The notes beneath the pieces were generated by a model. The model ran no database searches, had not been told where the DNA came from, and saw only the letters and a list, made by a program, of their open reading frames with translations. Position numbers and translations under genes: made by a program. Positions 610 to 62,799 of a stretch of 64,000 bases of DNA are shown here, piece after piece. Position 1 is the first letter of the stretch, and every line of letters begins with the position of its first letter. Source of the stretch: Dictyostelium discoideum (lineage: Eukaryota); NCBI GenBank assembly GCA_000004695.1, contig CM000154.2, positions 192,001-256,000 on the forward strand. The letters run 5' to 3'.

Positions 610-3600
610 TTATAAATTTTCAGAAGAAGCTTCATATAATGGATTGATAGCAGATCTACCACTTTCTTCATACATTGGATTTGTAGAGACAGCACCATCA
701 GCAAAAGCTCCTTCACCAAAGAATGCATCTGTTGGTGGAGCAGATTTCTTTAATAAGAACCAAGCACCAGCGGCAAGTAAACCTGCACCAGCGGCAGCAC
801 CAGCAATTGCACCAGTTAATACTGTTTTATTATTATTTTCTTTGGTGGTAGTAACTTCAGGTTTTGTTACATCCAATTCAACATAATCAGTTGCAGTCAT
901 ATGATTTTTATCTCTAATTGATGCTGGTGAACTATAACCTAAATCATTAACGAATACTTTGAGACGATAAGAACCACCACCTTGGTGATTTACATACATT
1001 GTGGAAATTAAAGCATTGAGTGTCTTTTTATTTGATCTACAAGTGAATTGAGCGAATTCAGAATGTTTGGTGCATTTTGCTTTACTTTGTTGAGATAAAG
1101 AGAATGTTGCAATTTTATTTGAAACTAAATCGCCATCCTTGTTAACCAATGAGAGAATTAATTCAACATCATTATATTTACTGTCTGGATCATCAAATGA
1201 GACACCTGTAACAACGATTGAAGTATTGGCGAGTGAAGTATAGTTTTTATTTTCAATGGTAATGAATGGTGGAATATTCTTTTTTGAAACATCAACTGCA
1301 ACTGTGACTGGAACAGAGATATCACCCAAGAAATCTACCATTGAAATTGGAATACGAACATAACCATCACCAGATGAACCTGGAGTTGGTACAAAAACGA
1401 TATACCAAAAACCATCTTGAGCTACAGGAACAAATGTATCATCCTTTTTTATTAATTTACCCAAACCATCCTTAGCATCTTTATCATAGACATAGAGTAA
1501 ACCACGAAGTGGAGGACTGACAATATAAGATTTTAATTTTTCTTTTGGATCGTCAATATCAGTGCCATCATATTTAATAATGACATAAGAGTTAGTTTCC
1601 ATTTTAACAGTCTTAAATTTATCGAATGCTATAACATTATTTGGTAGAGTTGAAAGAGTATGTTCAATTAAGATGACCTCTGGTGCTTGATTTACTGGGA
1701 TAACATTGATGATAATGGTATATTTTTGGGATTCAACTTCTTGACCATTAAATTTATCATAGAGTACAAATTCAATAATGGCATAATTATCACCATTTTC
1801 ATATTCAATTGGTGTAAAACTAAAGGTATATGGTTGAGATGTGAAGTTTATGTTAATATCAACTGGATTTGGTTCAGACATACAACCTTCAGTACCCATA
1901 CAATGAGTGGCATATAATGAACCCCTGGAAACGATCGATTTAATTCTTAGGAAAACATTTGAACCACCATTACCAACGATACCAGAAATACTGAATGGAA
2001 GATCAGTATTTTCTTTAGTGTATAAAACAGCTAAACCCTCATAGGTTGGTGGATTTCTTGGTTCAATAAAGAATGAAACAGTACCAATATTTGAAGAGAT
2101 ATCATTTTTACTATCTTTTGCAACAAAATTGAAAGAATCGGCTGGTCCAACATGGCCTGGTTTATCCCAATTGGAATAACCTGCAACTGGAGTATAAACA
2201 AAATCATCAATTGCATAGGTTGAAGAGATTTCAGCTGCTTTTCCTGTTGATTTAATTGTAAGGGTACCTTTTGCTGGAAGGGATCTAATTACAGCCCTAA
2301 CATTTGAATTATCTTCAAGATCGGTGGCTTTTACTGAGAAACTAACGGAACTATCTTGATTTAAGGTTTCATCTGATGATTCTGCTTTTGGTGGAACATT
2401 AATATATCTAAAGGTGATTGGGCCAGTTGCAATATTTGAAACTGCATTACTTGAATCATAACATTTTGCATCGAATGAATCACTGAAATCATTATAGATA
2501 TTATTATTTGAAGTTATGATGTATTTATTATCTGATAAATCAGTTGGTACAGTATCGATTACTTTACCAGCAGAGGTTTTAATAATGGCAGTTGCTGGTA
2601 ATTTAACGATAGTGCAATGGAATACAGTATCTATTAAATCAATATCTTTTGGTGTTAATTCTAAAGTTTTTTCAGAAGTTTGAGAGGTGAAATCATATGG
2701 ATCAATTGAAAGGGTTGGTGCATGATTAACATGTTGGACTGTGATTTGAGTAGTCTTTGGAGTTGCATCTCTCTCACCCATACTATCCTCAACAGTATAA
2801 GAAAAACTATCTGTACCATAGTATAATGGATTTGGTTTATAGAAAATCTTGTATGGTGCATTACCAATAATTGGTGCTTCACTTGTTGAACTACCTGATT
2901 TAACTAAGATAACTCCATTCGTTGGTTTTTGTATTATAATACCTTTAAGTTTACCTTGATCTAATTCATCTGGGTCGATACCATCAATTACCAATTCATT
3001 GGAAATATCATCTTCATTCATTGTGAAATTTGGAATTTGATTTACAACTGGTGGGGCATTTGGACGATCACCATTGATATTGATTAAAACTTTAAATTTA
3101 TCACTAGATAACTGGCCATCATTGGCAAAGAATACTAAACTTGCATATGAATTTGCATTTACGAGTGGGGATGAATAACAGATTTCAGAGAATGATGCTA
3201 CACCACCAGAAATTGAAACTGGTTGGGTTGTAAATGGTGCGGTGAGTTGTGATCTATCATCACATTTAAAGAAACTATCACCTCCACCCAATTTGAGGTC
3301 GTCTAAAGTAAAAATAACACTATCAGAGTCGGAATCAGAGGCTGAAATAGTAATTTTAAGTTCTGAATTTTGTCTAATTGTAAGTGGTGTTACAGCGAAT
3401 GCAACTGGTGGTTTATTGAAATGAACAAATTTAACCTTGAAAGAACATGAAGATGAAGAATCTAATGAACCATCATTAACTTTGAAATCAACGGTAATTT
3501 CTTTGTCATTTGCAATATCTTTAGTTTGTGTGAATGTAAGAGATGCAGAACCAGAGGAAAGTTGTACACTTGATCCAGTGGAGACTACATTGCTACCACT

Positions 3601-5225
3601 TTTAATGTTACCATAAGCTGAAATAGCAGTTAAGTCACCAAATACAATTTTTAAATTTGAATCGGTTTCAATATCACTACCTTGTAATGAGAAAGATTTT
3701 GGTGTATTTAATCCAGTAACTGAAATTGCAGAACCTGAAAGACTTGAACAAGATGGTGCTTGATTTACATGGGTAATTTTAATTTCAACGGTTGCTTCAT
3801 TACTATCTAAACAACCATCATTAGCTACAAATGTAAATTTATCATTGGTAGATTTAGTGTAATAATTGGTGGCTGGTTTAAAGGTAAAGGTTTTTTCAAT
3901 TGAGAATGAATCACCTTGTTCAATGGTTACACCATCAGCTTGAATTACACCAACAGATGCGGCTGGAATAGTTTTAAATTTAATAGTTAAAGTATTTCCA
4001 TCAACATCACTACCTGATAATTTAAAGTTATAGTTTACATTTTGTTTGGTTTCAATTGAATAGCCTAAAGCAGTTGGAGCACTATTATAGTTGATAACAA
4101 TTCTAGTTATACCAAAACCTACAACAGAGTAAGATACAGATGGGTTTTGAGGAATATCTGATTGACCTTGTGGATATTTGATTTGAATTGGAATAGTGTA
4201 ATCTTTTGAATCTTCGATACTAATTGTAGTTGCTGATGGAAGTGTTAAAAATCCTTTGGTATCATCGATTGCTTTAACAACTGCTTTGCTTAAAACATCC
4301 TTGATAGCACTAGTAGCTACTGATACCCAGTCATTACCTTTAGCGTTTGAAGTTTTTTTAGTTGAACCAAAGCCTTGGTTTTTGAAAAGGGTATCCCAAT
4401 TTTGATTATCATTAAAACTAACAACAACTGGTAAAATGGATTTACTGATTAAAGTGGATGTAAATTTAGAAACTTCTTGAGCAGTGGCTGAATAATCATT
4501 ATCAGTTAAAAGAACAATGATTTTAATTGAACCTGTGCTCCAACCAGCTGGAAATTCTGCAGCACTTGTAAGTGCAATGAGTGAATTTTTAGTAGAGTAC
4601 GATGAAGCAGGTGCTTTATCTTTATCATCCAAACCACTAAGACCATTACCAATTGATTTCTTTAAAACGAATGAATAACCATTGGTTTTGGCATCTGAGA
4701 ATAAACCTAAACCAATTGAAACAGTTTCACTAATATCTTGGAGGTTTTTAGTTAAATCAGATGAATACTTTTTAAAATTATCCCAATATTCAACGATACT
4801 TGGTTGAGAATCAACAAGAACCAAAACTTCAAATTTATCAATTGTTTCTGGAATACTAAGTTTAGATGAAAGAGTTAAAGCTTGTTTTGATGGATCGGTA
4901 TTTAAGTAAACTTGAGCAAAGTTTGGATTGATATAACTTGATTTAGCTACTGATGAATCGAGAACAACATTTTCTTTGTTTGCATTACAAACTTGGTTAA
5001 CTTTAATATCACAATTTTTACCTTCCCAACCATAGTAGCATGTACATTTACCATTACCTTGGCTGCCTTCATTGGACTCACCATTTACACATGGATCTAC
5101 TGGGTCACATTTTTCACCATAATGTCCTTTTAAACATTCATAACAATTCTTTTCTGGATCCCAACCTGTTTCACAATTACAACCACCACCTGGTTTATTA
5201 GTACCATGACCACAAATTGGTTTTT
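610..5225 (-). CDS. Terminal exon of a Sib-like (similar to integrin beta) type I membrane adhesion receptor. Contains EGF-like Cys-rich repeats, a VWA-like domain, many Ig/cadherin-like repeats, a Gly/Ala-rich TM helix and a cytoplasmic tail with two NPxY motifs
   Basis: The ORF-track 'M' at 4824 is TTG; the frame stays open upstream to acceptor AG at 5226-5227 (exon starts 5225: KPICGHGTNKPGGGCNCETGW...CYECLKGHYGEKC...CTCYYGWEGKNC). VWA-like segment: VLVLVDSQPS...IKIIVLLTDNDYSATAQ. TM: LTGAIAGAAAGAGLLAAGAWFLL. Tail: NPMYEESGRSAINPLYEASSENL*. Stop at 610-612. Confidence 0.6.
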
Positions 5226-5228
5226 CTA

Positions 5229-5272
<44 letters not shown>

Positions 5273-5337
5273 AAGTGTTAATATTTTCTAAGATATAAAA
5301 AAAAAAAAATAAAAGTATTTAAATATAAAATTCTTAC

Positions 5338-6307
5338 CAACTGAAATTGAAAAAGAAGTAATAGTTGAGACTAAACCCTTATTATCAGTACAATAAGCTG
5401 AAATAACATAAACACCAATATGTTTTAATTGTGGTAACATTGAATAAGTAAGAGTTGAAACTTGTTTATTTTGATCTGATGAAGTAAGAGTAGCAGCAAG
5501 TGGAATATTTGCAGGTTGAATAAATACAGTTTTAGATTTTTCTTCAGTTTTACATTGAATTGAAAAAGAATTTGTTTTGTTTACTTCATATGCAAGGAGA
5601 GAACCATCTGTCGGAGTTGGTGGATAAACAAAAACTGGTGGGAAAGAAGAACAAGTGTTACCGTTTGAGTCTGTTCCTTTACATGATTTACAGCCCGAGT
5701 TACCATTGCAAGTATTTCCACCATTGCTACAAGATGGATGACAAACACCTGGCTCTATGACTGAATTAATGAGGAAATCAACTACAACGTAAGCACCCTT
5801 GGTATCTTTGATCATAATTTGAGTAGAATAAAAACCAGAAACGGTTGGTTTAAATGATACTATGCCTTTGCTGCTATCGATACTTAAACCTGATGGTTGG
5901 TTCATGGTGTAGGCATTACTGAGAGAATATGTGAGTGTATCACCATTTGGATCAGATGCTGCGATAAGGAATTGATTATTTTTATCTCTATTTAAAGTGA
6001 TAATTGGGACCATACCTGAAACTGGTGAACGATTGAAAGTAGATACATCACTACCTTGATTTGGATCAACAACCACTGATGTGGAAATATACCAACTACC
6101 TTCTGCATTGTTTAACAATGATTTAATTCTGCAACAATCAGTAAAGACTACTTTATATGTGACGGCTTTTCCACCTAATTTTATTGGGTTATAAGTGTGT
6201 GTGTATGAAAACTCTCCGGTAAACCAATCATCGGCCTGATTAACTGATGTTACTACTAAATTAACATCAACTTTAGTTTTATCATCTCCAAGGTCCAAAT
6301 CACCCAC
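5338..6307 (-). CDS. Upstream exon of the same Sib-like gene (cadherin-like DPNGDTLTYSL repeat plus Cys-rich segment). The true 5' boundary is an unresolved acceptor between 6308 and 6397, and the N-terminal signal-peptide exon was not found
   Basis: ORF 5288..6307 ('M' is GTG; frame open upstream to stop at 6398-6400). Donor G|GTAAGA at 5337/5336; 112-bp intron 5226..5337 containing a 34-nt poly(A) run. Phase 1 (G + AA = Glu) joins in frame to the exon starting at 5225. Confidence 0.55.
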
Positions 6308-7756: not shown

Positions 7757-10700
7757 TTAATTGTCATAAATAAATTTTATGTTATCCAAAAATAATGATG
7801 GTTGATTTAATTCTAAAGAGTTAATAATTGATAATCCATCAAAAGATGAAATGAGATGGATATGATTTTCAGGTAAAAGATTTTTTAAATTTTCAAATAA
7901 AATCCTGACCAAAACCCACGAGTTTTTTTTAAAATAATTTTTATCAATTGCAAAGGGCTGAGATTTTAATTGATTGGAATTGATAGAATAAAAAAGTTGG
8001 ATTGAAATTCTTTGATTTGAGTTTCTATTACCATTGACCCAAATTTCAAAATATTTTATACCAACCGACGGTATGCAATGGTTACATTTAAATTGAATTT
8101 GAGATTTTGAGGTTGGATGATAGGGAAGGTATGCATTACCACGATATGCATATTCACTATTATGGATTATTGATTTATCCATTTGAAATGAATTTTCAAA
8201 TTTTCTATTCACCACTTCATCGAATAGAGTGAAACTACTTCCATATGCCAATGATTGACAATCACCTGTTACTCTACCACTATTTTTACCACTAATTTTT
8301 ATAACCAACTCTTCACAACCATATTCTGGGCAATAATTTAAATGATCTTTTGAATTGTATTGATAATACATTATATAGAGCATTGATGTAATTTCATTGA
8401 AATAATAAGTTGATTCTGAAATTAAATTCATTGAAAATGTTGGATATAATTCTTCAACAAAATTACTATTACCATAGGTACCATTAACAGTTTTCAATAC
8501 CTTCAAATTTATTCCTTTTGAAATACCAATACATATACCAAATGTAAATTTCTCACTTTGTTTCCAATTCATTGGTTGAACCCTAAGTATTGGTGGTGTT
8601 GGATGATTTGGGAAATGAAAATCATAATGATGATTTTTAAAAACTAAAAATTGAAATCTATTTCTTGGTGAGTGATTTGGTAAACCAATTTGTTCAATTT
8701 TTTGATTTTCAATATTATCTCTAATTGCAACAACACTTGATGATAATGATAGATAATTTGTAGAGTTTGTATCATCATTACATATATAAATTTGTCTTGT
8801 ATCTTCTTTACAAATTAATGCGTCCCATGGTTTTTTATAATAGCAATTATTTGTTGAATAGAATAATAAATTTCTAACTAAAATTGAATTTGATAATTTT
8901 GTAGTACTACCATCTAAATCTCTTAATGTTGAAATTTTATCACCATCCATTAAACTTTGTTCAAAATGAATTTCTTTATCAACATTTATATATTTTATAT
9001 TTTTTATAGTTGTTTCACTTGATGATTGCCAATCGTTAAATCTTAAGAAACCAATTGCACTTGAATTTCTAAATAGTGGTGGTAAACTTTTAAATTCTGA
9101 GAATACCATTGAATCTAGTGAAATTGTACCATCATAAATTTCAAATCCTCTTATTGGCATTAACCCATTCTCACCATATGGATTGGTCCTACCATTAACA
9201 ATTGGAATATTATTTGATTGCTGACCAATATTATCACTCTCACCAACTATTAAAGATTTATAAATATATTGACCAACATTTTGGTCTCCAGGAATTGTAC
9301 CTTCACTTGCAAATGTAAAACCAATTGCATTGTCAGCAATTTTAAAATTTTTCATAAATAAAAATCCACCCCTTGCCCAACAACCTCTCCATTTATTTTT
9401 ATAAATTGTTGCACCATTAAATATTGAAGGTGAGGGTTTTGAATTTGGATTTTTAGGATTTGATCTTGGTTTATATCTTGCATTTATCATTGAATTTAAT
9501 TGTTGAGGTTGAGTTTTACTTGGCGGAGTTAATTTAACACCACCATCAATTTGAATACCATTTGTGCACGAATGAACATTATTATTATAAAATTTCTTTA
9601 CAGGTATTAAATAAGGTTTAATATTATATTTTATACCTCTTTCATGACTTAAACCACTTGGATAATCCGAAAATAAATACCAAATACCGGTTGAATCAGA
9701 ACCCGATGCAACATTATCAATTAAGGTATTCCAAGGATTTGATATCCAAAAGGTTGAAACTGCATTACATTCTGTGCATTGTGTTGGATTACCATTGAAA
9801 TCATTTGGTTGAATTCTAGAACACATATCACATGATCTGTCATGAGGAAATAATAAACCATATCTAGTGACAGCACCTAAATTATGAGAGAATACATTAT
9901 CCATTTCAATACCATCACATAACATATAGCAATGACCAATTGAATCGAATCCAATATTATCATGAATTAATAATCCATCAGTGGAATGAACGACATAACA
10001 TCTTGAAAAAGATTTATGTACTGAACAATGTTTAATATATGCTGGATTTTCATAGCCACCCAATTCATCTACTCTATCACAAAGATGAAAATGAATTGGA
10101 TATCTAGAAACTACATGTGATTGTCCAACATTAAATAATTCAATGCCAAAGAAATGTGCATTTACAAAACCTTTTCGAATCATTATATGAGCACCAAATG
10201 AATCAAATGGAAAGAAATCACAAACTAATTTATTATTTACACAAGTTTTACCAACTTGTCCTTGAATTTTAATATTTCTAGTTAACAATGCAACTTCAGC
10301 TCTTTCATCAACACCTTTTGTAATTGAACCCCAATGAAGATATTTTATTGGATTTTTTAATTTAATTTGATTTGTTTTACATGTTGAACATTTAACAATA
10401 AAATTGGTTTCACTCTGTTCCATATCATAATCTGTACTTGTTATTAATATCTCTGATCCAATTGGCCAATCATTGACATTATCCAATAATGTTAAAATGT
10501 TTTTATTTGAATTAAAAGTTGATGGTGAAATTGTAGAGATTAATTTTGTCCAAGTTGTTTTAGTCACTTCACTATGAAGTTCAATTGTACCACCATTATC
10601 AATACCAATTACTTTTTGACCATATTCATTACCATTAATTGTTTGATTTATTTCAGTATAAATTGAATCACCAATTAGAGTTATTGTTGCTTTATATTTG

Positions 10701-51539: not shown

Positions 51540-51883
51540 ATGAATAAAGAAATAGAAAATTTGGAAAATTATAATTATTTAAAAAGTTGTTTAGAATTAA
51601 TTGAAACAAAATATTTTAACCAAAAAGAAGAATTTCTGAATCAATTAAAACTAGCAAATTTAGAAACAATTAATAAATTATTATATGCAATAATTAGAGA
51701 AAACATTTTTGAACAACAAAAAAAAGAAGAAAAAGAAGATTTCAAATTAATTGAAAATGAAAATTATTATTTTATTTTTAAAACTAAAAATCAATTAAAT
51801 CCAATAATGAAATTAAAAATACCAATAAACCAAGTTTATAGTTTAAATAGATTTTCAATTTCGGATTTTCCAAGTTTAATAAC

Positions 51884-51977
<94 letters not shown>

Positions 51978-53846
51978 AATAATAATCAAGAAATAATACT
52001 TGATAATTGTTTTAATTTAATTGAGTTATTTAAAGAATCAACTATGGATTATAATGAAGAATATATAAATGAATATAAAAATGAAATTGAAAATAGCATT
52101 GGTAATCAAGCATTAATAAATACAATTTCAAAATTAAATCATAATAATATTAAAAAACAATCAATAATGAATCAATATAATTCAGTAATAGATTATGTAA
52201 ATAATCAAGATCATAGTTTTGATTCAAATTTATTCTATGAACAATTATACACAAAGGGTCATTTAACTCATACATCTCCAAAAATGAGAAAAGGTTTCAC
52301 ACCAATTCAAGTTTTAAATTACTCTTCTGAATTATCAAATTTTGTTAATTTACATTTCATTGCAATTAAAAAACAATATTCATTATCATCCTCTTCATCA
52401 TTAAAAATACAAAATACTAATAATAATTCAAATTATTTAAAAGATGATGATGATGATGATAATGATGAATATTTATTCAAATATTATCCAAATTCAAAGA
52501 AATCAATAATTGAATATATGAATAAAGTTTCAATCAATTTTAATGATTATAACTATCATTTAATTCATCCATGGCAAATTGAAAATATTATCCCAACACT
52601 ATTTAAAAATGAATTATCTCAATCAATTGTAGTTTTAATTCCAATTGAAATTGCATCAGTTTGTTCAAAGCCATTAATATCTTTAAGAACTGCTGTTATT
52701 TTCCCTGAATTAAGTGATGATAAATTAATGCCACATATAAAAGTACCAATAAGTATTAATATAACATGTGCTCTTAGAACAATATCATCACAATCAGCAA
52801 ATAACGGTCCAATATTTAGTGAAATCATTAGAGATATCTATAAAAGAGAGTATCAATCATTCTTTGGTAATGAAATTAATTTTCTATCGGAAACTTATGG
52901 TTGTTGGTTCAATCCATTGGATATTAATGATAAATCTATTAAACATAAATCAATTACAAATATTTGGAGAGAAAATCCAAATATTTTACTTGAAAATATA
53001 AACAATAACAATAATAAGAATAATAACAATCTAAAATATAAAGATCATTATAAACAACAAGTAATAGTTTCATGTTCATTATATTCCATCTCTCCAATCA
53101 CTAATAAATTAATCTTGTTTGAATTAATTGATGGATTTATAGAAAATAAACAAAAAGAAAAACAATTTATTGTTCAAAACAATAGTAACAATAATATTAA
53201 TAATAATTATAATAATGATAACAACAATAGCAAAGAATTAGTATTCAATTGGTTCAATTCATATATAAGTAAACTATTGACAGTAACAATTGTATTAATG
53301 AGTAAATATGGTATTGGATTAGAAGCACATTTACAAAATACATTATGGATTATTGATAGTGAAACTTTTGAACCTGTAAAATTAATTTGTAAAGATTGGG
53401 CTGGTTCACGTTTAAATTTAAAGAGATTATCTTCTCAATCAATTCAATATAATTATAAAGAAGGTTCTATCACTATTTGTGGCGGTGGTGAAGTTGATGA
53501 ATCTATAGAAATGTATAATAAAGTACAACATTCTGTTTTTAATAGTAATATTGGTGAACTAATATTATCAATTTCTAAATATTACAATATTATGGAAATC
53601 GAAATGTGGAAATCTGTATCTTTGATTTGTAAATCCATTTTTAATAAATTAAAATTGCAACACCTACAACAAAAACAAGAACAACAACACGAAAAAGATG
53701 ATCACTTTTTAAAACAACTACAACATGATGAAAATGTATTATTTTCAAAAAATATTGATGTAAAATCATTAACAAAAATGCGTTTACAAACTGATAATAA
53801 AGAAAATATTACAACTTCAATTATTAATCCATTATACAATTTATAA
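51540..53846 (+). CDS. IucA/IucC-family (NRPS-independent siderophore synthetase-like) protein, 768 aa, intronless, with an inserted 36-residue poly-Asn tract
   Basis: Motifs I associate with IucA/IucC synthetases: LTHTSPKMRKGFT (GHPxH..K.R.G region), LIHPWQIEN (HPWQ), ISLRTAVIF (SxRT), GLEAHLQNTLWI (EAHGQN). The (AAT)n tract 51893-52010 encodes the poly-N run. Confidence 0.6.
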
Positions 53847-62726: not shown

Positions 62727-62799
62727 TGGAGAAGAAGGGTATCGATCCCTTTACCTCTCGCATGCTAAGCGAGCGCTCTACCATCTGAGCTACATCCCC
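62727..62799 (-). tRNA. tRNA-Ala (anticodon AGC), 73 nt, no intron
   Basis: Minus strand GGGGATGTAGCTCAGATGGTAGAGCGCTCGCTTAGCATGCGAGAGGTAAAGGGATCGATACCCTTCTTCTCCA. Cloverleaf is complete: G3:U70 Ala identity pair, D stem GCTC/GAGC, anticodon loop TTAGCAT, T stem AAGGG/CCCTT. Unusual points: A54 in the T loop and a U6:U67 mismatch. Confidence 0.7.

Follow-up and report, generated by a model that had tools for sequence, protein, structure and literature searches.

An intact IucA/IucC-family siderophore synthetase gene in a Dictyostelium chromosome and its relatives across Dictyostelia

The gene and its chromosomal setting

The window analyzed here is a 64,000-nucleotide (64-kb) stretch of Dictyostelium discoideum DNA, and the gene under study occupies positions 51540 to 53846 of its forward strand. 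It encodes a 768-aa protein of the IucA/IucC superfamily, that is, a nonribosomal peptide synthetase (NRPS)-independent siderophore (NIS) synthetase. The following features were identified within it, with positions given in the numbering of the window.

51540 to 53846, forward strand: complete, unspliced coding sequence for the 768-aa NIS (IucA/IucC-type) synthetase, stop codon included, taken from the list of open reading frames (ORFs)
51540 to 52229, forward strand: N-terminal domain (aa 1 to 230) preceding the Pfam core, aligning to the N-terminal domain of bacterial homologs; predicted local distance difference test score (pLDDT) of 80 to 90 except in inserts
51877 to 51986, forward strand: (AAT)n array called by TRF as an imperfect array of 36.3 copies, of which 51885 to 51974 encode Asn116 to Asn145; predicted disordered loop insert
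52230 to 52991, forward strand: IucA_IucC catalytic core (aa 231 to 484; Pfam PF04183; E value, 2.8e-41; 142.1 bits against a cut-off of 25)
52257 to 52295, forward strand: motif G240-H241...H244...K248-M-R-K-G252 (bacterial consensus EGHxxHPGxKxKxG), with G240, H241, H244, and K248 invariant in the alignment
52404 to 52457, forward strand: Ser/Asn/Asp-rich low-complexity insert (aa 289 to 306), a gap in bacterial homologs; pLDDT below 50, predicted disordered
52566 to 52577, forward strand: HPWQ motif (aa 343 to 346), with H343, W345, and Q346 invariant
52680 to 52691, forward strand: SLRT motif (aa 381 to 384), with S381, R383, and T384 invariant, as are K401, T409, and R413 downstream
53004 to 53045, forward strand: Asn-rich insert (aa 489 to 502), a gap in bacterial homologs; pLDDT below 50, predicted disordered
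53172 to 53234, forward strand: Asn-rich insert (aa 545 to 565) that separates the Pfam domains; the sister lineage has a shorter one
53250 to 53801, forward strand: C-terminal FhuF-like domain (aa 571 to 754; Pfam PF06276; E value, 2.3e-17; 64.4 bits against a cut-off of 25.2)
53322 to 53339, forward strand: EAHLQN motif (aa 595 to 600), in which E595, H597, Q599, and N600 correspond to AcsD E442, H444, Q446, and N447 (HMMER alignment to PDB 2w02)
53391 to 53396, forward strand: K618-D619, corresponding to AcsD R463-D464 (HMMER alignment to PDB 2w02), with D619 invariant

Exact look-ups placed the protein in NCBI assembly GCA_054883475.1 alone, on chromosome CM142511.1 (5.29 Mb), and the window does not correspond to the AX4 reference. 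Cyclin-like, Erf4-like, RanBP1, Mlh1, and TatD genes flank the NIS gene, and a second assembly, which is annotated as D. discoideum, shows the same gene order. The GC content of the gene (0.20) and its GC content at third codon positions (GC3; 0.10) lie inside the range of its neighbors (GC3, 0.05 to 0.26) and its codon usage is host-like, which bears out the full amelioration proposed in the initial annotation of this stretch. Bacterial contamination or an assembly artifact could be suggested by a family that is typically bacterial. This candidate was rejected and retains practically no probability, as it is refuted by chromosomal context (a 5.3-Mb chromosome, spliced eukaryotic neighbors, and the same synteny in an independent assembly) and by composition (20% GC, 10% GC3, and a tract of 30 uninterrupted AAT codons, (AAT)30).

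When gene span was compared with product length in the annotation deposited for this contig, most of the neighbors (six of nine) were confirmed to be spliced. The remaining three are unspliced like the NIS gene, so the lack of introns, which the initial annotation had offered as evidence of transfer, is not diagnostic of it. The poly-Asn insertion singled out in the same place proved to be an ordinary Dictyostelium repeat; of the 20 large ORFs in the window, 8 contain homopolymer runs of at least 8 residues. The tract does lie inside the ORF, but its reported length of 36 codons reflects the imperfect array called by TRF, and the pure run comprises only 30 AAT codons (positions 51885 to 51974), followed by GAG and three further AAT. 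In the sister-lineage ortholog (locus L002), the same site reads only (AAT)2 AGT AAT GAG (AAT)3. The (AAT)30 tract, which the sister lineage is without, is a recent and generic Dictyostelium slippage expansion in a disordered loop. The start ATG of the ORF is found in the context AAAAAATG, which is A-rich and typical for Dictyostelium. Scans of the locus for tRNAs, Rfam families, and tandem repeats identified nothing tied to the NIS gene except AT-rich simple repeats. Elsewhere in the window, asparagine accounts for 42% of a 525-aa ORF (18483 to 20060, reverse strand), which has no Pfam match and includes eight poly-Asn runs of 8 to 32 residues; it is an extreme example of the low-complexity coding typical for this genome.

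The window protein is ~94 to 95% identical over aligned residues to KAM9969268.1 and KAM9975794.1, both annotated as D. discoideum and found in syntenic position; the window gene is therefore the ortholog of the D. discoideum IucA_IucC gene, or the same gene in a closely related genome. Comparison with the second-assembly ortholog (L002) over 715 codons gave a dS of 0.099, a dN of 0.0235, and a dN/dS of 0.238. In the same comparison, five neighboring genes gave dN/dS values of 0.075 to 0.256, and the NIS gene is thus under ordinary purifying selection. These values bear on the question of whether the ORF is a decaying relic or pseudogene that is open by chance. Large low-complexity inserts, a 1-bp deletion 42 nt past the start in one sister assembly, and the limitation of the match in strain AX4 to an unusually divergent 78-aa C-terminal model (DDB_G0280231, starting at a Met equivalent to M689; window positions 53604 to 53843) could all be cited for a relic. 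However, a 768-codon ORF is intact at ~20% GC, where random ORFs are short, the dN/dS of 0.24 is comparable to those of the Mlh1, TatD, and cyclin genes, and the invariant catalytic residues are all kept, the inserts being confined to loops. The deletion, moreover, lies in an A-run after the shared ATG (GCA_054859385.1, ~10040 to 10050; window positions 51579 to 51586) and may be an assembly error. It causes the KAM9969268.1 model to start with a different upstream exon and intron, which is probably an annotation workaround for either a homopolymer error or a real frameshift. A relic is considered very unlikely, and the NIS gene is a genuine amoeba chromosomal gene, intact and selectively maintained.

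Domains, fold, and catalytic residues

That an amoeba chromosome carries an NIS synthetase of the IucA/IucC family, as had been proposed from motifs, was confirmed with profile models (142 bits for PF04183 and 64 bits for PF06276). HPWQ (aa 343 to 346), SxRT (SLRT, aa 381 to 384), EAHxQN (EAHLQN, aa 595 to 600), and K.R.G (KMRKG, aa 248 to 252, after G240-H241) had been named as hallmarks, and each was found once. An AlphaFold2 model, for which a shallow alignment was used, had a predicted template modeling (TM) score of 0.82, with pLDDT below 50 only in low-complexity inserts (aa 61 to 72, 119 to 147, 289 to 306, and 489 to 502). The poly-Asn segment at aa 119 to 147 is a gap in bacterial homologs, as are those at aa 289 to 306 and 489 to 502. 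When the model was compared with the PDB using Foldseek, 56 matches with an E value of ≤0.001 were obtained, and all 50 of those listed were NIS synthetases, with target-normalized TM scores of 0.70 to 0.81. The best match was AsbB (E value, 2e-27), and all solved NIS synthetases (AcsD, AlcC, AsbB, DesD, and others) were matched over their full length. The window protein is a member of the IucA/IucC NIS synthetase superfamily, and this assignment is secure.

E595, H597, Q599, and N600 are invariant in the amoeba and bacterial alignments, and every position that is invariant across amoeba and bacterial homologs is retained in the window protein. The AcsD residues aligned with E595, H597, Q599, N600, and D619 line the ATP/Mg2+/citrate site in the AcsD structures. 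Lys occupies position 618 (window positions 53391 to 53393) in 8 of 10 amoeba sequences, as against Arg in 215 of 219 bacterial homologs; the Lys could be a clade signature or plain AT-driven AGA-to-AAA drift. By every sequence-based criterion, the gene is predicted to be functional.

Relatives in bacteria and dictyostelids

An exhaustive search for homologs with phmmer, covering 1.84 billion cluster representatives, returned 467 matches. A word-indexed search gave one match with the full protein, where poly-Asn words swamp the candidates, and eight without the low-complexity segments, while a profile query added none. Every named top match outside Dictyostelia was bacterial. The best of these phmmer matches came from Alkalihalophilus/Alkalihalobacterium, Anoxybacillus, Geobacillus, and Paenibacillus (27 to 35% identity); also among them were fused proteins of double length encoded by Amycolatopsis and by compost metagenomes. 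GTDB species genomes, when scanned, yielded chiefly Bacillaceae, along with some matches from Rubrobacter, Planctomycetota, and haloarchaea. Stand-alone NIS synthetases of Bacillaceae (Alkalihalobacterium, Halalkalibacter, and Mesobacillus; e.g., WP_158211502.1) were the highest-scoring named relatives, sharing 27 to 34% identity over nearly the full length. Like the window gene they are single synthetase genes, and they form the nearest bacterial group in the Dayhoff-6 tree described below, with a sister support of 28% bootstrap.

Homologs with 25 to 35% identity were also found in D. purpureum (XP_003291983.1), D. citrinum (three proteins), Cavenderia fasciculata (XP_004366071.1 and others), and one EukProt species. 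In C. fasciculata GL883029.1 (L086, 1 to 12091), three IucA/IucC-FhuF genes lie within 12 kb; their products are 722 aa (truncated by the end of the locus), 1576 aa (P0100, a model into which a ComC/EGF gene has been merged), and 696 aa (P0048). D. citrinum (L084, 5861 to 12049; L083, 1944 to 8753) carries two divergently transcribed NIS paralogs ~310 bp apart with ~35% mutual identity, and in both assemblies a lipocalin gene (181 aa; PF00061/PF08212) lies 0.4 to 1.6 kb from the pair. Mammalian lipocalin-2 binds siderophores, although the adjacency in D. citrinum may be a coincidence. D. purpureum GL871251.1 (L085, 10001 to 12791) has a single intronless NIS gene, DICPUDRAFT_50166, with a gene for a 172-aa GNAT acetyltransferase (PF00583) 244 bp downstream on the same strand and a Cu/Zn superoxide dismutase gene 6 kb away. 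Two apparent fusion partners, a pseudouridine synthase joined to NIS (P0042) and NIS joined to ComC/EGF (P0100), were set aside, as they look like models merged with unrelated neighbors. No description of the dictyostelid NIS paralog clusters, including the Cavenderia tandem, was found in the literature searched.

A D. discoideum gene of the same Pfam family, DDB_G0294004 (IucA_IucC), appears in Table 2 of Sucgang et al. 2011 (PMC3188802) as a candidate for horizontal gene transfer (HGT) from bacteria, with its function given as "Unknown"; the entry is credited there to the genome paper of Eichinger et al. 2005. According to PMC3188802, every one of the candidates falls inside a bacterial clade, and the single IucA_IucC gene of D. 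discoideum is accompanied by "No model" for a D. purpureum ortholog. A D. purpureum IucA/IucC protein nevertheless exists, at ~27 to 32% identity, and the dictyostelid-wide paralog family is not described in that table. A 2026 preprint on D. giganteum mentions "siderophore-related proteins" among HGT-type domains; this preprint and the 2011 table were all that was found in the literature searched for NIS enzymes in Amoebozoa and for both gene identifiers. The horizontal transfer raised in the initial annotation therefore agrees with the bacterial identity of the nearest non-amoeba relatives but is already published and not new. With respect to gene transfer, the present analysis rediscovers a candidate on the standard Dictyostelium list; what it adds is an apparently ancient date for the transfer, the dictyostelid-wide paralog clusters, and the Bacillaceae-like relatives.

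Neighbor-joining trees of 229 sequences and 553 columns, unrooted, were built from Kimura distances and from Dayhoff-6 recoding. The ten dictyostelid sequences formed one clade with bootstrap values of 75% (Kimura) and 91% (Dayhoff-6). The initial annotation had set nesting within an ancient eukaryotic clade against a bacterial placement; what was found lies partly on the former side, in that the clade is dictyostelid-wide, but that clade still sits among bacterial sequences.

A recent, lineage-specific bacterial transfer into the D. discoideum lineage would fit an intronless gene and the listing in PMC3188802 of one D. discoideum gene with no D. purpureum model. This candidate was rejected as already contradicted by several observations: no bacterial protein is more than ~35% identical among the 1.84 billion representatives, codon usage is wholly host-like, the homologs of D. 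purpureum, D. citrinum, and group-1 C. fasciculata group with the window protein, and three of nine neighbors are intronless too. It is regarded as highly improbable. Vertical inheritance is the other alternative, in which an ancient eukaryotic NIS gene, shared for example with Mucorales and Basidiomycota, was kept in Dictyostelia and lost elsewhere. Consistent with it, the gene sits in a eukaryote-only clade covering dictyostelid groups 1 and 4, type A' NIS synthetases of this two-domain architecture exist in fungi (PMC10700112), and the tree is unrooted and without an identified fungal sequence. On the other hand, all named best matches outside Dictyostelia are bacterial, the diversity of the family is overwhelmingly prokaryotic, very many independent eukaryotic losses would be required, and the published analysis puts the gene inside a bacterial clade (PMC3188802). 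We consider vertical inheritance unlikely, if less so than a recent transfer.

Given a multi-paralog clade that spans D. purpureum, D. citrinum, and Cavenderia, any transfer would predate the dictyostelid radiation. The best reading of these relationships would be one ancient acquisition before that radiation, followed by duplication and differential loss. An ancient acquisition would also explain the complete amelioration and would make intronlessness and poly-Asn uninformative about transfer.

Likely product and role

When the NCBIfam NIS models were applied to the window protein, FslA scored 140 bits, SbnF 57, and SbnC 56, the FslA match beginning at aa 114; FslA was also ranked first for all amoeba paralogs and for the closest bacterial proteins. 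The Anoxybacillus homolog and the closest bacterial clusters are named D-ornithine--citrate ligase by JGI. In Anoxybacillus, the homolog is one of two adjacent NIS genes that are followed by genes for a major facilitator superfamily (MFS) exporter and a decarboxylase of the Orn/DAP type that depends on pyridoxal phosphate, and this NIS-NIS-MFS-decarboxylase architecture is that of the fsl/fig and sfa loci. The Alkalihalobacterium homolog is a lone synthetase gene adjoining a gene for an FhuF 2Fe-2S ferric-siderophore reductase; no such reductase gene is present beside the amoeba gene in the window.

The type A' NIS synthetases (FslA/FigA of Francisella, LbtA of Legionella, SfaB and SfaD of staphyloferrin A, and Rfs of Rhizopus) have the IucA_IucC plus FhuF-like architecture in common with the window protein, which differs from them in being ~100 to 150 residues longer through low-complexity loop inserts and in having no adjacent exporter or decarboxylase gene. 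Rfs and the Ralstonia enzyme act as single synthetases, like the window gene with no second NIS gene at its locus, and one NIS enzyme suffices for rhizoferrin in Ralstonia and Rhizopus (PMC7857480). Membership of type A' is defined by phylogenetic clustering with characterized A' representatives (PMC10700112). Among solved structures, the petrobactin synthetase AsbB of Bacillus anthracis (PDB 3TO3) was the best match both by profile (226 bits with the clade profile) and by fold (target-normalized TM score, 0.78 to 0.80), with a structural-alignment identity to the window protein of only ~16%. This type C enzyme ranks first because the PDB holds no A' structure. AsbB joins citryl-spermidine to spermidine, a citrate-derived acyl donor to a polyamine, and works with AsbA in the asb operon, to which nothing around the amoeba gene is comparable.

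Dictyostelium is reported to contain putrescine, spermidine, and 1,3-diaminopropane, which would supply substrates of this kind. As the nearest relatives among bacteria are FslA/SfaD-like enzymes of Bacillaceae, a product of citrate with a di- or polyamine or ornithine is favored. The specific assignment, in which citrate or a citryl-amine would be activated and condensed with a di/polyamine or ornithine, is tentative and at best evenly balanced, and a rhizoferrin-like product would be the best guess. In mechanistic terms, the protein would be a cytosolic, stand-alone NIS synthetase of the IucA/IucC superfamily. Judging from the family, a carboxyl of citrate or of a citryl-amine would first be adenylated with ATP/Mg2+, and the acyl-adenylate would then be captured by an amine (putrescine, 1,3-diaminopropane, spermidine, or ornithine), giving a citrate-based polycarboxylate chelator of the rhizoferrin/staphyloferrin A kind. 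The gene itself would have been gained from a bacterium by the ancestor of the dictyostelid social amoebae rather than recently, and would afterwards have been duplicated into several paralog lineages, taken on host codon usage, and acquired low-complexity loop inserts, of which (AAT)30 would be the latest. On balance, we judge this overall explanation, a functional NIS synthetase of bacterial derivation with a citrate-amine product that was acquired anciently by the dictyostelid ancestor, to be probable.

Several results weigh against parts of this explanation. As to origin, the bacterial sister group of the dictyostelid clade has bootstrap values of only 28 to 45%; the tree is by neighbor joining only, contains neither the characterized type A' references (FslA, LbtA, and Rfs, plus SfaB and SfaD) nor an identified fungal NIS, and has long amoeba branches that share an AT-driven composition. 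Clade-specific residues and indels sought in support of dictyostelid monophyly amounted to five positions only, which are weak evidence because all use AT-rich codons. As to function, the 140 bits obtained with FslA fall short of the 1000-bit cut-off of the equivalog model NF041038, which makes the protein FslA-like rather than an FslA ortholog, and "FslA-like" is itself a coarse call, as NCBIfam holds three NIS models only. Pfam scans of the 20 largest ORFs revealed no exporter, decarboxylase, reductase, or receptor in the 64-kb window; an adjoining exporter, precursor enzyme, reductase, or receptor gene, by which a siderophore cluster is recognized, accompanies the bacterial relatives and is absent from the window. 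No report of a siderophore from any dictyostelid was found in the literature searched. Finally, DDB_G0280231 (P0097) is the only AX4 protein match in databases and is ~15 to 20% different from the window protein, KAM9969268.1, and KAM9975794.1. The gene may be dispensable or broken in this laboratory strain; the AX4 locus may be split or decayed, or the assemblies may not all be of one species.

Some of these points would suit a different role, that of a recruited amide ligase making a polyamine or ornithine conjugate for signaling, development, metal storage, or defense against prey bacteria. Exporter, receptor, and reductase partners are absent at the locus, the clusters of two to three paralogs in Cavenderia and D. 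citrinum stand beside unrelated genes (lipocalin and GNAT), no dictyostelid siderophore has been reported in the literature searched, and a phagotroph obtains iron from its prey. Against recruitment, the characterized family members are all siderophore makers, the catalytic residues are unchanged, and the closest bacterial relatives reside in canonical siderophore clusters. Recruitment is therefore rated as rather unlikely, although it is the strongest of the alternatives considered, and synthesis of a citrate-amine chelator is preferred.

The enzyme is probably in use, to judge from its purifying selection and intact catalytic residues, its conservation across Dictyostelia, and the clustering of its paralogs. 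The paralog clusters also raise the possibility of a multi-enzyme NIS pathway in amoebae, in which the neighboring genes may or may not take part. In the window, there is no second NIS gene, lipocalin gene, or GNAT gene, and tblastn with all of the paralogs, the lipocalin, and the GNAT protein matched this ORF only. A broader proposal is that dictyostelids keep an ancient, expanded, partly clustered, and catalytically intact NIS family that synthesizes a citrate-(poly)amine chelator of their own, or else a related amide product serving in development or in competition with prey bacteria, with the window gene as one working component; this we regard as doubtful, though not far-fetched.

To our knowledge, twenty years have passed without a function being assigned to the D. 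discoideum IucA_IucC gene, and amoebae are not known to produce any siderophore. If the broader proposal were true, synthesis of a citrate-(poly)amine chelator would represent the first case of a siderophore pathway in a phagotrophic protist. As a genetically tractable host, Dictyostelium serves as a model for Legionella, Francisella, and Mycobacterium. All three compete for iron, and two of them use homologous enzymes to make siderophores of the rhizoferrin type. If the host also made a polycarboxylate chelator, this would bear on host-pathogen competition for iron.

Elsewhere, the window contains Sib integrin-beta-like, formin C, methylcrotonyl-CoA carboxylase alpha, ankyrin/RabGAP, and adenosine deaminase genes. 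The Sib-type adhesion gene (610 to 6307, reverse strand) has SIBA-E N-terminal, Ig, and vWA domains, together with repeats matching bacterial Ig and cadherin-like Pfam families (Big_9 and Cadherin_4). A tRNA-Ala gene (anticodon AGC; 62727 to 62799, reverse strand), identified by both ARAGORN and Rfam, was the sole structured-RNA match in the window.

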